59,393 nt of DNA, taken from positions 1 to 59,393 of the IMG/VR virus record IMGVR_UViG_3300029492_000005. One strand, given 5' to 3'. The translations under genes were made by a program, and so were the position numbers. The stretch is from a virus. The notes beneath the pieces are model-generated. The model saw only the letters and a list, made by a program, of their open reading frames with translations. It searched no databases and had not been told where the DNA came from. The stretch's first letter is position 1. Each line of letters opens with the position of its first letter. Below, in pieces: positions 1 to 6,006 of this stretch.

Positions 1-99
1 ACCGGCTGGCAGCGATTGAGGACTTACAGTCTGAGATTGAGGACCGGGAAGCAGAGCTGAAAAACCTCCGTGCGCAGTTGGCAGACCTGATAGCTGGTT
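1..99. repeat. Terminal direct repeat, copy 1 (identical to 59295-59393); circular-assembly overlap
   Basis: nt 1-99 (accggctggcagcgattgagg...cctgatagctggtt) recur exactly as the last 99 nt of the window. Confidence 0.95.
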
Positions 100-135
100 G
101 ATTTTATACAGCCGTATTAAGCCGAAGTAAGAATA

Positions 136-777
136 ATGAAGCCTAATGAAGCCGTAGAAAGGAAACGTATGGATAACAGCAAAATCCATGAAGCTCTGAT
201 GGCTGTTCAGTCAGAGCTGAAAGCCCCGAAGGGGCAGATGAACACATTTGGCGGTTACAAGTATCGCTCTTGTGAGGATATTTTGGAAGCAGTCAAACCA
301 ATTTTGAAAGAACACGGTTTGCTTCTTACCCTTTCTGATGAACCTAAAGTGTTAGAGGGGTGGCATTACATCGAAGCGACCGCAAAGGTGGAAACTCTGG
401 ATGGTGGATGCGTAACGGTTACTGCTTACGCAAGAGAACCGGAGCAAAAAACCAAGATGGATGCAGCGCAAGTGACTGGAACGTCTAGTAGCTACGCCAG
501 AAAGTACGCCTTGAACGGTTTGTTTTGCATTGACGATACAAAGGACGCTGACACGGACGAGTACCAGAAACAGACCACAAGCAGGTCAAACAAGCCTGCG
601 CAGAAGCAAATGGAAGCGGAAACCATCCCCCCATGCGCTTGCTGCGGAAAGCAGTTGCAGCCTATTCAGTACAACAACCGCACAGTCACTCCGCTGGAAA
701 CTGCAAGAAGCACGAAGAAACGCTTTGGGCGCGTCCTGTGTTGGGACTGTGCTCAGAAACAGCCGAAGGAGGGCTAA
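136..777 (+). CDS. erf: ERF-family single-strand annealing recombinase with C-terminal CxxC...CxxC zinc-ribbon extension
   Basis: 213-aa ORF. ERF hallmarks GGYKYRSCEDILEAVKPIL and TGTSSSYARKYALNGLF. ssb follows directly. An alternative start at the internal MDNSK has a better SD. Confidence 0.8.
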   Translation: MKPNEAVERKRMDNSKIHEALMAVQSELKAPKGQMNTFGGYKYRSCEDILEAVKPILKEHGLLLTLSDEPKVLEGWHYIEATAKVETLDGGCVTVTAYAREPEQKTKMDAAQVTGTSSSYARKYALNGLFCIDDTKDADTDEYQKQTTSRSNKPAQKQMEAETIPPCACCGKQLQPIQYNNRTVTPLETARSTKKRFGRVLCWDCAQKQPKEG

Positions 778-780
778 ACA

Positions 781-1200
781 ATGCTCAACTCTATCGCAAT
801 TCAGGGGCGTCTGGTTCACACGCCTGAAGCTAAGGTCACGAAGTCTGGAAAGGATGTTTGCACGTTCAGCATTGCCTGCGACCGTCAGAGTGGCGGCCAG
901 AAGGAAACCGATTTCTTTAACTGCACCGCATTTGGCAATACGGCGCTGTTTGTTTCCAAGTGGTTCCAGAAGGGTAGCCTAATTCTGGTGACTGGCAGCA
1001 TCCAGACCCGGAAGTATACCGACAAGCAGGGAAGCAACCGCACCGCAACGGAAATCATGGCGAACAAGGTTGACTTCTGCGGTGGCAAGTCTGACAGCAA
1101 ACCCGCCGATCGGGCGCAGGATGCACCACAGAACTATTCGCAGGGAAACGCAGATGACTTCTCTGTGATTGACGACAGTTCTGATCTCCCTTTTGACTAA
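781..1200 (+). CDS. ssb: Single-stranded DNA-binding protein
   Basis: OB-fold SSB pattern (LNSIAIQGRLVHTPE...TDFFNCTAFGNTA...GSIQTRKYTDKQG) and acidic tail ending DDSSDLPF. Confidence 0.9.
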   Translation: MLNSIAIQGRLVHTPEAKVTKSGKDVCTFSIACDRQSGGQKETDFFNCTAFGNTALFVSKWFQKGSLILVTGSIQTRKYTDKQGSNRTATEIMANKVDFCGGKSDSKPADRAQDAPQNYSQGNADDFSVIDDSSDLPFD

Positions 1201-1238
1201 CGGTTACGCTACCGGGACAAAAGGCGAGAAAGGAATAG

Positions 1239-1805
1239 ATGGAGGAACTTTGGAAAGACATTCCAGAATACGAAGGGCTTTATCAAGCATCGAATCTTGG
1301 AAGAATCAGAAGCGCACCGGGCAAAACGACTTTTTCTGCTGGATGCAGAGTTCGGACTTGGCAAGTAAGAATTATCCAGCCTAAAAAAGAAAAAAGATGC
1401 CGAAACTCAAAAGGCTACACTGACGAGAGAGTAGAACTTTGGAAAGATAGAACACACAAAACAATGCTTGTTTCACGGCTTGTTGCAATGGCTTGGGTTG
1501 ATGGTTACAAGCCTGAATTGACTGTAAATCATATTGATGGAAACCCATCAAACAACACACCTGAAAATTTGGAGTGGATAACAAGAAGTGAAAACATAAG
1601 AAAAGGATTTCAAGAAGGTCTTTACGATAAATGCAGCAAAGAAGTTGCTCTTATTTCTCCAACGGGGGAAATCCACTATTTTGGAACAAGAAAAGCTGCT
1701 TCAAATTTTCTAGGAAAGAATCATGCGTATTTGAATAATCGCCAAAAGCGAAATTACAAGACCGGGATTGATTCAAACGGAAATCATTGGCTCATTAGAG
1801 ACTGA
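1239..1805 (+). CDS. HNH homing endonuclease (NUMOD4-like N-terminus + HNH_3)
   Basis: WKDIPEYEGLYQASNLGRIRS (NUMOD4-like) and VNHIDGNPSNNTPENLEWITRSENIRKG (HNH). Visibly AT-richer than its neighbours. Confidence 0.85.
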   Translation: MEELWKDIPEYEGLYQASNLGRIRSAPGKTTFSAGCRVRTWQVRIIQPKKEKRCRNSKGYTDERVELWKDRTHKTMLVSRLVAMAWVDGYKPELTVNHIDGNPSNNTPENLEWITRSENIRKGFQEGLYDKCSKEVALISPTGEIHYFGTRKAASNFLGKNHAYLNNRQKRNYKTGIDSNGNHWLIRD

Positions 1806-1858
1806 TCGCCTACCTTATATAAGAGCTGCGCTATCTGGCTGGACGGGCGTTTGGAAAG

Positions 1859-3769
1859 ATGAAGCACTTGGGCGACATTACAAAGATTCACGGCGACAAG
1901 ATAGAGCCTGTGGATTGCATCACGTTCGGTAGCCCATGTCAGGACTTGTCCATTGCTGGACGCAGGGCTGGACTTGCCGGAGAACGCTCCGGGCTATTCA
2001 TAGAAGCGGTTCGAATCATAAAAGAAATGAGGTCAAGCACAAATGGACTGTATCCAACTTTCGCTGTTTGGGAAAACGTACCAGGAGCATTCAGTTCCAA
2101 CGGAGGAGAAGATTTCAGAGCCGTGCTGGAAGAACTTGCCCGCATTGAACAGCCAGACGTTTCAATTCCTCGACCTTCGGGTAGGGGGGGCAGATGGAGC
2201 AAAGCTGGAGCAATCGCCGGAAATGGATGGAGCTTGGCTTGGAGACAGCTTGACGCTCAATACTGGGGAGTGCCCCAGAGAAGAAAACGTATCGCTCTTG
2301 TCGTGGATTTTGCAGGTCAACGCGCCGGAGAAATACTATTTGAGCGAACGAGCCTGTCAAGGCATCCTGATTCGCGCATCCCGGCGTGGAAAGAAATTGC
2401 CGGACTTACTGCAAACTGCCCTGCTGGAAATGATGGAGTGGTGGGAGCCGGGCGCGGCCGCAAAGGCGATGGAAATGCTGATTGCAGAAGAACAGAAACG
2501 GATAAGACGGGAGAAGCTGGCCGCTCTGAACGAGAGGAAAGAACGGATAAGAGAGAAAGCAGAGAAGCAGCTGCGTACTCTCTTAAAATCCGCTCTGGCT
2601 GTGCCGGGGGCGGAAAGGGCGCACTTGTGCAAACAGAAAAAGTCGGGACGCTATCGACACTCCAAGACCAGACGATTTTCCAGCTAGTGCAAGCCGGGGA
2701 GATAATCCCAATAAACACACAAATCGCTACAAGACACATCTCGATGGGAGAAAAAACAGGTCTTGGAGTTGGAAAGAATGGAGACCCGTCCTTTACTCTA
2801 CAGGCACGGCATGAACACGGCGTGTGCTATTGCATTGCGGGAAACATTGTTGACAGAGCCGATACGGCAGTGGCGAACGGCTTGGGCGCAAAAGAAGAAG
2901 TGGGCTATACACTGAACACAATCGACCGTCATGCAGTTGCGTATTCCATAAATCCGTTGTCAAGTAACAGCATGAAATCGGCAAATCCGTACAGCGGGTT
3001 CAATGAAACAGGTGTAAGTAAAACGCTCGACTGCTCTGACGCAAACCCAACGAAGAATCAGGGAGGACTTGCCATCGTTCAGCCGATTCCGATTCAAGAC
3101 AAAACAGGAACCCTTTCGCCCGGCGCTCACGCTGGAAGCTACAATGGACAGGATGCTTACAACGATATGCTGGTAAGGTGCAGAGTTTTTGACGCAAGAG
3201 GTAATGGAAATGGAAAGATAGTTCCGACCATTACGGGAGACCACGAAAGCAGAATCACAGACTACACGGCAATCGTAACAGAACCGGAAGATTGTTTGAC
3301 ACCGTGGGATAATCAAGCTCGGAGGATATATAGCGAGAACGGAACGTTTCCAGCGCTGGCTGCAAGAGAAAAAGCGGGGCAAAATCAGCAGTCCGTCCTA
3401 ACGGAAACGGAAATTAGGTGGATAGTCCGCAGACTGACCCCAACGGAATGCGAACGTCTGCAAGGCTACCCGGACGGCTGGACAGATATCGGAGAGTGGG
3501 TAGACACAAAGGGTAAGAAGCACAAGCCGACGGACAGTCCGCGCTATAAAGCGCTTGGAAATTCCATTGCACTTCCTCAGTGGTTCTGGATTGCACAGAA
3601 GATGAAGCCTTATCTGAGCGAAAATTCCACGCTAGGCAGTCTGTTCGATGGTATAGGCGGCTTTCCGCTTGTTTGGCAAAAGACTTATGGAAACGGTACG
3701 GCACGATGGGCGAGCGAAGTTGATAGCTTCTGCATTGCCGTTACAAAAAGGAGATTCGGCGAAGAATGA
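1859..3769 (+). CDS. DNA (cytosine-5) methyltransferase with circularly permuted motif order (IV-VI-VIII-TRD-IX-X-I-II)
   Basis: GSPCQDLS (IV), VWENVPG (VI), YWGVPQRRKRI (VIII), TPTECERLQGYPDGW (IX), YKALGNSIALP (X). Then TLGSLFDGIGGFPL...WASEVD (I-II) as the last ~45 aa. Confidence 0.8.
   Translation: MKHLGDITKIHGDKIEPVDCITFGSPCQDLSIAGRRAGLAGERSGLFIEAVRIIKEMRSSTNGLYPTFAVWENVPGAFSSNGGEDFRAVLEELARIEQPDVSIPRPSGRGGRWSKAGAIAGNGWSLAWRQLDAQYWGVPQRRKRIALVVDFAGQRAGEILFERTSLSRHPDSRIPAWKEIAGLTANCPAGNDGVVGAGRGRKGDGNADCRRTETDKTGEAGRSEREERTDKRESREAAAYSLKIRSGCAGGGKGALVQTEKVGTLSTLQDQTIFQLVQAGEIIPINTQIATRHISMGEKTGLGVGKNGDPSFTLQARHEHGVCYCIAGNIVDRADTAVANGLGAKEEVGYTLNTIDRHAVAYSINPLSSNSMKSANPYSGFNETGVSKTLDCSDANPTKNQGGLAIVQPIPIQDKTGTLSPGAHAGSYNGQDAYNDMLVRCRVFDARGNGNGKIVPTITGDHESRITDYTAIVTEPEDCLTPWDNQARRIYSENGTFPALAAREKAGQNQQSVLTETEIRWIVRRLTPTECERLQGYPDGWTDIGEWVDTKGKKHKPTDSPRYKALGNSIALPQWFWIAQKMKPYLSENSTLGSLFDGIGGFPLVWQKTYGNGTARWASEVDSFCIAVTKRRFGEE
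2043..2687 (+). other. 214-codon alternative-frame ORF fully embedded in the methyltransferase gene (status unresolved)
   Basis: Open frame with GAGG 10 nt upstream of its ATG. Protein-like sequence (SLFGKTYQEHS...LNTGECPREENVSLLSWIL...KYYLSERACQGILIRASRRGKKLP) and a K/E/R coiled-coil tail. Confidence 0.3.
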
Positions 3770-3984
3770 TTACCTGTTGTCTCAACTGTACATCACGCCA
3801 CAAAGCCTGCCACGACACTTGCGAGAAGTACAAGGCAGAGAAGAAAGACTTTGAGGAGCGCAAGGCGTTCGTGCATGAGCTGAACCACAGCCAGAGCGTG
3901 TACCACCGCAACTGCGAGGACAAACACCGGGAACGTGGAAAGAAACGGTATCTCGGAAGTGAATTTAGAGGTGAACGAGGATGA
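3766..3984 (+). CDS. Small Cys/His-rich hypothetical protein
   Basis: 72-aa ORF. ATGA overlap with the methyltransferase stop. CCLNCTSRHKACHDTCEKY motif. Confidence 0.55.
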   Translation: MITCCLNCTSRHKACHDTCEKYKAEKKDFEERKAFVHELNHSQSVYHRNCEDKHRERGKKRYLGSEFRGERG

Positions 3985-4523
3985 GCAAAGCCGTACTTAT
4001 TAGCATTCGTCCAGAGTGGTGTAACAAAATTGCAGGTGGGCAGAAGACCGTGGAAATCCGCAAAACAGAGCCAAATCTGAAAAAGCCGTTCAAGTGCTAT
4101 ATCTACTGCACCAAGAGTACACACTTTGTCGATATTCCCGGTGTGAAAAAAAGCGGCCTCATGTCGGCTGACGGAAAGGTCATCGGCGAGTTTACTTGCT
4201 GTAGTACTACGGTCATCCGCCATGTAAGGCCGACGGGAAGCGGGGCTTTGCCCAAGCTACACATTATTGGGCCGGGGCTAGAATTGCAGTATAAGCCTGC
4301 GACTGACCTGCTCAAAGCGGCCTGCCTGAGCGAAGAAACCGCCGAAAAATATCTCGAAGGCCGTGGCGGCTACGGCTGGCACATTTCCAACTTGAAAATT
4401 TACGACCGCCCACGACCGTTGAGCGATTTTACAAGGCGGCGGGCAACGAAATTTGGCTATGAGCCTGTAGATATTGAGCGGCCACCGCAATCCTGGTTTT
4501 ATGTGGAGGAACTTTACACATGA
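3981..4523 (+). CDS. ASCH domain protein
   Basis: N-terminus KAVLISIRPEWCNKIAGGQKTVEIRKT is typical of ASCH/PUA-like domains. Start overlaps the upstream stop. Confidence 0.6.
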   Translation: MSKAVLISIRPEWCNKIAGGQKTVEIRKTEPNLKKPFKCYIYCTKSTHFVDIPGVKKSGLMSADGKVIGEFTCCSTTVIRHVRPTGSGALPKLHIIGPGLELQYKPATDLLKAACLSEETAEKYLEGRGGYGWHISNLKIYDRPRPLSDFTRRRATKFGYEPVDIERPPQSWFYVEELYT

Positions 4524-5050
4524 ATACCGGCAAGCAATTTGAAGCAGACTTCAAAGCGTCCGTGCCAAAGGATGCGTGGTGCTATCGGCTGAAAGACAGT
4601 GCCGCCACCTACTACGGCGGCAACGAAAACCTGTCCTTCTCCATCGACAACATCTGCGATTTCCTTGTGTACCGATACCCGATGAACCACCTGTTTGAGT
4701 TAAAAACCATTGAAACGCCCTCTATCCCTCTGGAAAAGGTGTTCGGAAAGTACGACAAGGCAAAGTGCAAATACCGTAAGGAAAAGCACATCACGGACAT
4801 GGTGGATGCAATGGGGTACAGCGGTCAGACCGCCCATGTGATAGTCAATTACCGAGCGGTCAACCGCACCTTTGCAATCCCTGCCAGCAAAGTTCTAGCG
4901 TTCCGCTACAACGAGAGCCGCAAGAGCATACCTTGGCAGTGGGCAGAGCAAGAGGGGATAGAGGTCAAGGCAAAAAGGCTGCGTGTCCATTGGCGGTATG
5001 ACGTGGATGCGCTACTGGAAAGATTGGAGAAAGAAAATGCAACTGTCTGA
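4520..5050 (+). CDS. PD-(D/E)xK nuclease, RecU-like Holliday-junction resolvase
   Basis: GKQFEADF...YRLKD...NICDFLVY...LFELKT pattern (D...ExK), in the recombination/replication gene context. Confidence 0.5.
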   Translation: MNTGKQFEADFKASVPKDAWCYRLKDSAATYYGGNENLSFSIDNICDFLVYRYPMNHLFELKTIETPSIPLEKVFGKYDKAKCKYRKEKHITDMVDAMGYSGQTAHVIVNYRAVNRTFAIPASKVLAFRYNESRKSIPWQWAEQEGIEVKAKRLRVHWRYDVDALLERLEKENATV

Positions 5051-5273
5051 AAAACAAGAATTGGTAAGGCTTTTGGGGCTGTACCAAAGCGAACTTCTTA
5101 TGGAGAACGAAGAAAACCTTAGAAAGAAAATGAGAAGCAATGAAAGCCCGAAGAAGGTTGTCACAGATTATTCATACGGTGTAAAAGCTCAGTATGAACA
5201 CGCAAGAATCATCATCAAGAAACTTTCTGTTGAAATCGGAAAAGAACTCAAGGCTAGTTGGGAGTTGTGGTGA
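5037..5273 (+). CDS. Hypothetical protein
   Basis: ATG at 5037 (MQLSEKQ...) preceded by gagaaagaaa and overlapping the upstream stop. The track ORF starts earlier at 4983. Confidence 0.5.
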   Translation: MQLSEKQELVRLLGLYQSELLMENEENLRKKMRSNESPKKVVTDYSYGVKAQYEHARIIIKKLSVEIGKELKASWELW

Positions 5274-5275
5274 AA

Positions 5276-5638
5276 ATGACAATGGTTTGCGATAGATGCG
5301 GTGAAGCGTTTCTGCTTTCCAACGATGTAAAATACATGACACCGTTTGATGACGAACTTGACCAATTTGAAAGCAATTCTATTGTAAAGTGCCTTTCTGG
5401 CGATGATAAAGGGATTTACTCGATAAAAGACGAAACGGTTGTTCTTTGCCCCTCTTGCATGGCAAAGCTGAACGACTGGCTGAAAGGAGAACAGGAACGA
5501 CAAGCAAAATGGATTTACGACCATGAAAGCAACTCAATCGAGTGTGACAAGTGCAGAGCAGAATACAAACTCTCGCCGTATGAACGTGTATCGGATTTTG
5601 ATTATTGTCCTAACTGTGGCGCAAAGATGAAGGAATAA
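5276..5638 (+). CDS. Zinc-ribbon hypothetical protein
   Basis: MTMVCDRCG...CPSC...CDKC...CPNCG: two CxxC pairs at each end. ATG at 5276 lies just after the upstream stop. Confidence 0.55.
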   Translation: MTMVCDRCGEAFLLSNDVKYMTPFDDELDQFESNSIVKCLSGDDKGIYSIKDETVVLCPSCMAKLNDWLKGEQERQAKWIYDHESNSIECDKCRAEYKLSPYERVSDFDYCPNCGAKMKE

Positions 5639-5643
5639 TTAAA

Positions 5644-5985
5644 ATGAAAATCAAAGTGAATCATCGTTTTATCTGCTTTGTAATAGCAACTGTGACGCTG
5701 ATGCTTACATTGTTATTTACATCATGTAGTTCGGTATCTGCTGAAACTAAAACTGAAACTGCTGACCACCCTTGCTACCATGTTACAGTCTATTCCCCGA
5801 AAATCGACCATGCGGGAAACGGCAGCGAACGGCATCCGAAGTATACCATCACCGTGAATGACTTCGAAGAGCTTCTACCTGACCAGCTATCTGCTGAACG
5901 TGATTATCAGCTGCTCCGCATCCCCCTGGAAGATGGACGCTTTGAGTTGGTGTCCACATCTTTAGTTGAAATTGAATACTACTAA
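5644..5985 (+). CDS. Putative lipoprotein
   Basis: Signal peptide with lipobox-like LLFTSC (VIATVTLMLTLLFTSCSS). Confidence 0.55.
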   Translation: MKIKVNHRFICFVIATVTLMLTLLFTSCSSVSAETKTETADHPCYHVTVYSPKIDHAGNGSERHPKYTITVNDFEELLPDQLSAERDYQLLRIPLEDGRFELVSTSLVEIEYY

Positions 5986-6006
5986 GAGAGGCAAAGGAGC
6001 AGTCAA

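Follow-up and report, generated by a model that had tools for sequence, protein, structure and literature searches.

DNA methyltransferases with a circularly permuted chain are a textbook example of the evolution of new protein topologies, and only one natural topology of this kind was known before among the C5 cytosine enzymes. In natural enzymes of the M.BssHII type ("Type H": M.BssHII, M.Alw26I, M2.Eco31I, M.Esp3I, and M2.BsaI), the N-terminus lies in the variable region that separates motif VIII from the target recognition domain (TRD), and motifs IX and X precede motif I; their presumed origin is a duplication followed by truncation. Another topology ("Class B"), in which the new N-terminus falls after motif II and before motif III, with the old termini joined, was described as absent among natural enzymes (Slaska-Kiss et al., 2018; PMC5944983). 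Engineered II/III permutants (cp62M.MpeI as well as cp58M.SssI) were the most active among ten types, with cp62M.MpeI being similar in activity to the wild type, and the native termini lie close together in PDB entry 4DKJ (PMC5944983). Laboratory-evolved group-1 M.HaeIII permutants, cited in the same paper, are grouped with these engineered proteins. Here, we describe a gut-phage cytosine methyltransferase whose S-adenosylmethionine (AdoMet)-binding N-terminus is relocated to the C-terminal end. It is encoded by the open reading frame (ORF) at positions 1859-3769 of a 59,393-nucleotide stretch of virus DNA (IMG/VR record IMGVR_UViG_3300029492_000005, positions 1 to 59,393), referred to as the window.

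A phage methyltransferase opened between motifs II and III

The ORF matched Pfam PF00145 in four stretches, with a score of 116.4 bits (cutoff of 22; E 2.3e-33). When aligned with M.HhaI, ORF residues 4-89 corresponded to M.HhaI 58-136 (motifs III to VI), 128-148 to 149-169 (motif VIII), 518-579 to 266-315 (motifs IX and X), and 594-635 to 16-55 (motifs I and II). The last of these matches is too weak when taken alone (-0.8 bits), and the segment was therefore judged by two other comparisons. In BLASTP against a canonical relative (L014; NatCom_42228), ORF residues 1-589 aligned with residues 48-636 of the relative and residues 588-633 aligned with its residues 2-45 (50% identity, E 4e-8). A hidden Markov model (HMM) built from 28 canonical N-termini found its sole match in the ORF at residues 589-634 (58.4 bits, E 2.3e-20), which places motifs I and II in the last ~45 residues, as had been proposed in a reading of this DNA made without database searches (the sequence-only reading). 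The coordinates and the sequence given there for the ORF were reproduced. Taken together, the L014 alignment and the N-terminal HMM establish that each segment is present once, with none duplicated or missing. The ORF does not follow the canonical linear order of motifs I to X, and the circular permutation claimed by the sequence-only reading is confirmed.

The new start methionine is placed where canonical proteins read "..RLPWM/KHYGDI" (the slash marks the break). Previously, the break had been assigned to the interval between motifs II and IV. It does follow motif II, but since the new N-terminal LGDITKI is motif III, standard nomenclature puts the break between motif II and motif III. The catalytic motifs PCQ (P26-C27-Q28 in motif IV), ENV (E72-N73-V74 in motif VI), and QxRxR (Q140-R141-R142-K143-R144 in motif VIII) are all present, as are the AdoMet-binding residues of motif I (F596-D-G-I-G-G601), motif II (E620), and motif X (G567-N568).

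With its N-terminus between motifs II and III and its old termini joined, the ORF has the Class B arrangement. It does not have that of Type H, as motif VIII, the TRD, and motifs IX and X all precede motif I and the N-terminus is at motif III. The permuted clade to which it belongs (see below) is the natural type called missing by Slaska-Kiss et al. No description of a natural II/III permutant was found in a literature search that included later papers, with incomplete coverage and with REBASE outside its scope; the sequence-only reading had likewise known of no natural enzyme broken at this place.

Like the cp62M.MpeI-type permutants, the window enzyme has a new N-terminus between motifs II and III, joined native C- and N-termini, and the order III...X-I-II. 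Those permutants are man-made, from CG- or GGCC-specific parents, whereas the window enzyme is natural, phage-borne, and old, with a very long modular recognition region, a fixed 26-residue natural linker, a G run, and an internal +1-frame ORF. Type H enzymes share with it a natural permutation, the same fold, and the presumed duplication-truncation origin; the window enzyme differs from them in being cut inside the large domain. The order of the C5 methyltransferase motifs is also rearranged in plant DRM2, and the motif IV region of the window enzyme aligns with DRM2 residues ~299-350, near the end of that construct. DRM enzymes have motifs VI to X followed by I to V, which is another break point than the one found here, and DRM2 is a eukaryotic protein with UBA domains. 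The canonical relatives from Clostridia phages and prophages (e.g., NatCom_42228, XTK84397; NatCom_9291, XTK82540) are 33-45% identical over the whole core and share its modular recognition region as well as its +1-frame ORF; unlike the window enzyme, they carry motifs I and II at the N-terminus and end after motif X. A protein identical to the window methyltransferase (P0391) is found on 72 contigs and is named in nr only as "Cytosine specific methyltransferase."

Table 1. Features of the methyltransferase locus (window coordinates; residue numbers are those of the methyltransferase unless stated otherwise)
Feature	Position	Strand	Remarks
ERF recombinase gene	136-777
SSB gene	781-1200
Inserted HNH cassette in SSB-methyltransferase spacer	1229-1811	+	Approximate edges, ~583 bp; from comparison with L021
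Free-standing HNH homing endonuclease gene	1239-1805	+	188 aa; NUMOD4 and HNH_3 (Pfam)
C5 cytosine DNA methyltransferase, circularly permuted	1859-3769	+	636 aa; III-IV-VI-VIII-TRD-IX-X-I-II
Motif III (LGDITKI) and motif IV (GSPCQDLS)	1868-1951	+	Catalytic Cys27; aligned with M.HhaI 58-90
Overlapping ORF F2	2043-2687	+, +1 frame	214 aa; wholly inside the methyltransferase gene
Motif VI (ENVPG)	2072-2086	+	E72, N73, V74, P75, and G76 invariant
G7 homopolymer between motifs VI and VIII	2184-2190	+	Length sets the frame in relatives
Motif VIII (QRRKR)	2276-2290	+	Aligned with M.HhaI 149-169; Q140, R141, R142, and R144 invariant
Selected part of F2, three-helix domain	2298-2441	+	F2 residues 86-133 (LSWILQ..KYYLSERACQGILIRASRRGKKLPDLLQTALLEMMEW)
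Long variable target recognition region	2540-3373	+	Several "T-L"-type modules
Motif IX (RRLTPTECERLQGYPD) to motif X (YKALGNSIA)	3428-3571	+	Aligned with M.HhaI 266-315
Linker from old C-terminus to old N-terminus	3584-3628	+
Relocated AdoMet-binding motifs I (LGSLFDGIGGFPL) and II (WASEVD..VTKRRF)	3629-3766	+	End of protein
Small Cys-rich ORF	3766-3984		72 aa; start overlaps methyltransferase stop
ASCH-like protein, then RecU-like resolvase			Downstream of the Cys-rich ORF

A single ancestral permutation in Clostridia phages and prophages

Homologues with the same motif order, for which the sequence-only reading had advised a search, do exist, and the permutation is a family trait of Clostridia phages rather than private to the window phage. 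The permuted order was found in the isolate Faecalibacterium phages FP_Toutatis and Lelie, in MT836051 and other human-fecal virome scaffolds, in 78 IMG/VR loci (of 499 matching stretches), and in ENA, Logan, and JGI contigs. The GTDB species-representative genomes contributed a further set of 78 loci, all from Clostridia, of which 28 were permuted (including isolates) and 50 were canonical. We note that a contig of a Hadza-gut metagenome-assembled genome (L128; CAKSDE010000017.1) carries the methyltransferase in canonical order.

This recurrence bears on the concern that the permuted order is an assembly artifact, arising either because two ordinary methyltransferase genes in tandem were collapsed into one or through a circular-genome join. 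The concern is a generic one, raised by the sequence-only reading, with nothing specific in its favor. Independent assemblies, among them the two isolate phage genomes, Mexican virome scaffolds, the IMG/VR loci, the ENA, Logan, and JGI contigs, and the 28 bacterial genomes, have the same junctions, which refutes such an artifact. The gene is also internal, with the SSB gene on one side and the downstream genes on the other, and its start codon is preceded by a spacer and not by motif X. Because the junction is kept at divergence down to ~40% identity, a shared artifact is excluded as well. We regard the probability of an artifact of either sort as negligible.

When 84 representatives (below 93% identity) were placed on a neighbor-joining tree, the permuted genes formed one clade nested among canonical ones, and a single state change sufficed to explain their distribution; shuffled canonical and permuted labels required 27.9 changes on average (minimum of 22) on the same tree. 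The permuted clade comprises 46 lineages below 93% identity. The spacing of the linker between motifs X and I, taken from GNS to FxGxGG, was 26 aa in 67 of the 70 unique junctions, despite a variable linker sequence (diversity of 0.46/0.36/0.59 by codon position). A single clade on the tree, together with this constant linker length, indicates one old permutation event. The permutation thus goes back to one ancestral event, from which a large clade of phages and prophages in Clostridia inherited it. Following the standard model, this event presumably consisted of a tandem duplication and the subsequent loss of both outer ends. A duplication intermediate, with motifs I and II at both ends, was seen in none of ~160 unique loci, GTDB loci included.

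Within a sample of 24 diverse permuted proteins, PCQ, ENV, QRRxR, RxLTPxE, GN, FDGxGG, and E620 were invariant. The invariant residues of motifs IX and X are R524, L526, T527, P528, E530, G567, and N568, and those of motifs I and II are F596, D597, G598, G600, G601, and E620; among the catalytic residues of motifs IV, VI, and VIII listed above, only K143 varied. Nucleotide diversity in the relocated segment was 0.155/0.100/0.529 at codon positions 1/2/3, similar to that of motifs IX and X (0.144/0.115/0.474). As read from conservation and codon positions, purifying selection is shown to act on every motif, the relocated one included.

These data also bear on whether the permuted ORF is an inactive relic, i.e., a decaying pseudogene that is open by chance or through recent origin. 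Frameshifts at the G run in 16 of 93 related loci, along with further frame changes in a few other loci, would fit decay. However, the clade holds 46 lineages, the catalytic and cofactor-binding residues are invariant, and the third-position substitution excess is strong in both the relocated segment and motifs IX and X. Moreover, the frameshifts of the G run are confined to this homopolymer and recur in several sublineages beside in-frame sisters, which is the pattern of a switch and not of decay. A relic is therefore very unlikely.

We consider it probable that the ORF encodes a working orphan C5 cytosine methyltransferase of the phage, with motifs I and II transferred from the N-terminal to the C-terminal end. 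Its chain starts at motif III and passes through motifs IV, VI, and VIII, the long modular recognition region, and motifs IX and X, after which the fixed linker leads from motif X into the AdoMet-binding beta1-helix-beta2 unit formed by motifs I and II. Because the native ends adjoin in C5 methyltransferase structures, the permuted chain could close the same fold; if so, AdoMet binding and cytosine methylation should proceed as in its canonical relatives. We infer that the permuted methyltransferase is active and that its methylation most plausibly shields phage DNA against host restriction, an anti-restriction role.

Several points weigh against this interpretation. The case for fold closure is argued from the literature and from conservation, and the full-length AlphaFold2 model, obtained with a mixed alignment, had a mean predicted local distance difference test (pLDDT) score of 32.5, too low for use. 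The gene is not always intact, with ~17% of related loci being frame-broken at the G run. In view of the conserved +1-frame ORF, the single chain may also be less than the complete enzyme. Finally, the II/III topology may weaken AdoMet binding in vivo, through which nature might select against it (Slaska-Kiss et al., PMC5944983).

The recognition region varies in size, with relatives ranging from 479 to 716 aa and having conserved ends, and it changes by gain and loss of modules. It may read several targets. Such a long modular region is reminiscent of the multispecific Bacillus phage methyltransferases.

The overlapping +1-frame ORF and the G run

The overlapping ORF F2 has 986 homologues, mostly of ~213 aa, and its relatives form 2,733 clusters at 50% identity. 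It is called as a gene in five of the loci (L004-L008), and gene callers often favor F2 over the N-terminal half of the methyltransferase, both frames being open. Synonymous sites of the methyltransferase were conserved over F2 (identity of 0.78, compared to 0.50-0.56 elsewhere). Diversity at methyltransferase codons 147-196, the stretch matching F2 residues 86-133, was 0.303/0.170/0.173 by codon position, a periodicity that corresponds to the +1 frame; at codons 166-196, the values were 0.59/0.43/0.31 in canonical relatives and 0.56/0.40/0.31 in a wider permuted set. Selection on F2 was judged by the synonymous-site and codon-position tests, which replaced the shuffling of synonymous codons; for F2 length, shuffling yielded p = 0.004-0.07 per sequence, but this test is weak because the gene has few +1 stops anyway. 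By these measures, F2 is an ORF inside the methyltransferase gene, in another frame, that is conserved and under purifying selection.

AlphaFold2 predicted F2 residues 86-133 with a pLDDT of ~95 and the remainder, including the first 85 residues, as disordered. No Pfam family, PDB sequence match, or Foldseek match was found for F2, and PHROG 16143 gave a weak match (E 0.0056). At 2448-2687 of the window, F2 has an extra coiled-coil-like tail (AAAKAMEMLIAEEQKRIRREKLAALNERKERIREKAEKQL) that is missing in L002-type relatives, and the methyltransferase frame over the same bases is a low-complexity linker (GRGRKGDGNADCRRTETDKTGEAGRSEREERTDKRESRE).

A tblastn search with the F2 peptide (E of at most 1e-3) retrieved matches in 136 cultured-phage records. 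Six of these phages were checked (P1 dmt, KashFlow, Caulobacter DMCA, Vibrio VchM-138, Pseudomonas D14E, and Streptococcus Javan108), and all six have the peptide in the +1 frame relative to the annotated methyltransferase. The embedded ORF of P1, at AF234172 66713-67201 (L175 2219-2707), is unannotated in that genome. Between the window and P1, the F2 peptide is ~48% identical, compared to ~15-20% for the main frame over the same bases (counted by eye); thus, F2 is not a shadow of methyltransferase conservation. Nothing relevant came up in a literature search for such an overlap, either in this group of enzymes or in P1 dmt. F2 would encode a small helical protein that probably works with the enzyme.

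In about one-quarter of relatives, the methyltransferase is divided between two ORFs, one running up to motif VIII and the other comprising the F2 domain, the TRD, and motifs IX and X (e.g., L094 28-1951, L093, L159, L157, L153, L161, and L164). The two ORFs of such loci, which include a clade of isolate genomes, overlap by 350-560 nucleotides, and their frame junction is often another G run (G8 in L093, G7 in L102, G8 in L111, and G11 in L135). These split relatives are cut after motif VIII and before the TRD, like the natural split C5 methyltransferases of the M.AquI type. Two predicted proteins (P0136 and P0244) carry motifs III, IV, and VI, the F2 frame, and the TRD with motifs IX, X, I, and II in a single frame, without motif VIII (QxRxR); they may be either genuine products or frameshift variants.

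Given the conservation of F2, the single chain might make up no more than a portion of the enzyme. In that case, the functional methyltransferase would be a complex of the permuted chain with F2 or, in relatives, of an alpha chain (motifs up to VIII) with a beta chain (the F2 domain, the TRD, and motifs IX and X, with or without motifs I and II). The helical domain of F2 is subject to purifying selection of its own, both among permuted relatives and among canonical ones, and its matches in cultured phages, in the +1 frame wherever checked and including P1 dmt, would fit a subunit. Among the unique loci, 15 canonical and 7 permuted ones have the TRD and motifs IX and X in frame with F2 and not with motif VIII. 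The engineered split Class B permutant Mpe[62-279] + Mpe[280-61] is active (PMC5944983). M.EcoHK31I, the nearest precedent by description, likewise has a second polypeptide encoded in an alternative frame of a C5 methyltransferase gene: its beta chain is encoded in another frame within the alpha gene, and the N-terminal part of this chain is dispensable (PMC2836561), as the disordered N-terminus of F2 may also be. Unlike F2, which matches no known motif, the M.EcoHK31I beta chain supplies motif IX, which is missing from its alpha chain. The methyltransferase frame of the window, by comparison, holds all ten canonical motifs, with nothing obvious missing, and F2 has no Pfam or PDB match that hints at a role. 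On balance, an enzyme that includes F2 as a second chain is possible but less likely than not, and the complete single-chain methyltransferase remains our preferred reading.

The G run of the window (G7) lies upstream of the selected part of F2 and within the F2 reading frame. Its counterparts in relatives are G6, G7, G8, G9, G10, and G14, with G9 in Toutatis and G14 in Lelie. Between motifs VI and VIII, 77 of the 93 related loci had an intact frame, 10 were shifted by +1, and 6 were shifted by -1, with all 16 frameshifts tracing to G-run length. In most backgrounds, G7 or G10 is in frame, G8 gives +1, and G6 or G9 gives -1. In two loci (L030 and L031), G8 is the sole difference from window-type phages, and changes of the run recur in at least six sublineages with distinct flanks. 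A simple-sequence repeat within the ORF thus changes the frame among close relatives, as expected for phase variation. The run looks like a contingency switch that would turn the full-length frame on and off.

Sequencing or assembly errors could also generate length differences of this sort. Homopolymers are error-prone, the loci are mostly metagenome assemblies for which the sequencing platform is not stated, and a G7 run in 59 kb is not above chance (one G7/C7 run, at 2184-2190, compared to 3.06 expected). However, consensus assemblies seldom miscall G7, the spread from G6 to G14 includes two isolate genomes and recurs across sublineages, and in other lineages a second G run (G7-G11) occupies the other frame junction. 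Errors are therefore the less likely explanation, although one that retains appreciable weight beside a genuine switch.

In bacterial phase-variable methyltransferases (mod and hsd repeats; Campylobacter poly-G), as in the window, an in-ORF homopolymer sets the frame among close relatives. The window gene differs from these in being a phage gene of Clostridia and in that its G run lies in a dual-coding stretch, where a slip would re-pair two ORFs instead of causing a simple truncation. A literature search for a poly-G phage methyltransferase returned nothing relevant.

The HNH cassette, neighboring genes, and the methyltransferase family

The AT-rich HNH/NUMOD4 gene that the sequence-only reading had seen immediately 5' of the methyltransferase was verified by its Pfam domains (NUMOD4, E 1.4e-11; HNH_3, E 5.9e-10) and low GC content, and it corresponds to the PHROG 59 HNH endonuclease (E 1.7e-38). 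Compared with the cassette-free relative L021, the cassette edges read ...GGCGAG/AAAGGAATAG...GACTGATCG/CCTACC..., and the spacer between the SSB and methyltransferase genes is ~60 bp without the cassette. The GC fraction of the cassette is 0.36-0.38, compared to 0.50-0.55 in the flanks. The cassette was found at the same site in L019, L020, L023, L031, L038, and L039. It is missing in L015-L018, whose methyltransferase is 100% identical to that of the window, and in L021; the HNH gene is also missing in L008 and L002. All of these relatives have an identical or nearly identical methyltransferase with the same N-terminus as the window protein. No Rfam match was obtained in window positions 1-6000 at E up to 1, and a group I intron or another RNA next to the HNH gene was accordingly rejected.

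The sequence-only reading had suggested a possible link between this gene and one of two truncations behind the rearrangement, and the endonuclease might have caused or maintained the latter, e.g., through double-strand-break repair at the II/III boundary that shifted the first, exon-like piece downstream. The adjacency of the two genes in the window speaks for such a link, as does the recurrence of HNH genes around the methyltransferase family. However, the cassette is missing beside identical or nearly identical permuted methyltransferases and in most of the clade, it sits in the spacer and at no gene junction, its GC content is distinct, and the permutation is older by the whole depth of the clade. 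A causal role is thus highly improbable; the HNH cassette is a later mobile presence/absence insertion that is independent of the rearrangement. The codons upstream of the ATG (LAGRAFGK), previously proposed to be a decayed echo of the C-terminal tail, have only R-FG in common with that tail and sit in the intergenic spacer. Approximately 10 of 27 bases match by eye, and the motif is missing in more distant permuted relatives (KRNEVNM in L007 and KEAEEM in Toutatis). We treated this resemblance as chance.

Elsewhere in the family, HNH genes lie downstream of the methyltransferase in L024 (4389-4667), L049, L059, and L069, inside KashFlow gp113, in frame in P0250, and at L176 1327-1944 and 2819-3031. 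It seems that homing endonucleases often settle at genes of this methyltransferase family.

No restriction enzyme gene was found in the neighborhood of 1859-3769. The methyltransferase is therefore considered an orphan, located in an ERF-SSB-resolvase replication/recombination module. Its stop codon and the start of the Cys-rich ORF overlap as ATGA at 3766-3769, which suggests translational coupling of the two genes.

A large, old, and conserved natural II/III clade answers whether the laboratory's most active alternative topology occurs in nature, and its permuted and canonical sister enzymes constitute natural pairs for kinetic and structural comparison. We further propose, tentatively and at somewhat less than an even chance, that the whole subfamily, from P1 dmt through the enzymes of Vibrio, Caulobacter, Pseudomonas, Streptococcus, and mycobacteriophage to that of the window phage, carries an ancient, unannotated +1-frame gene between motif VI and the TRD. 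The three-helix product of this gene would serve the enzyme either as a subunit or as a regulator, and with homopolymeric G runs at both frame junctions, phages could switch among three states. In the first, a single-chain enzyme would be accompanied by free F2; in the second, the enzyme would have two subunits, with F2 joined to the half that carries the TRD; the third would be off. Within this system, the permuted clade would form a single branch. If this is true, a deeply conserved overlapping gene within a well-known enzyme family, which even the model phage P1 carries, would together with a homopolymer switch change the annotation of these genes, as well as the understanding of how phages evade restriction by epigenetic means.

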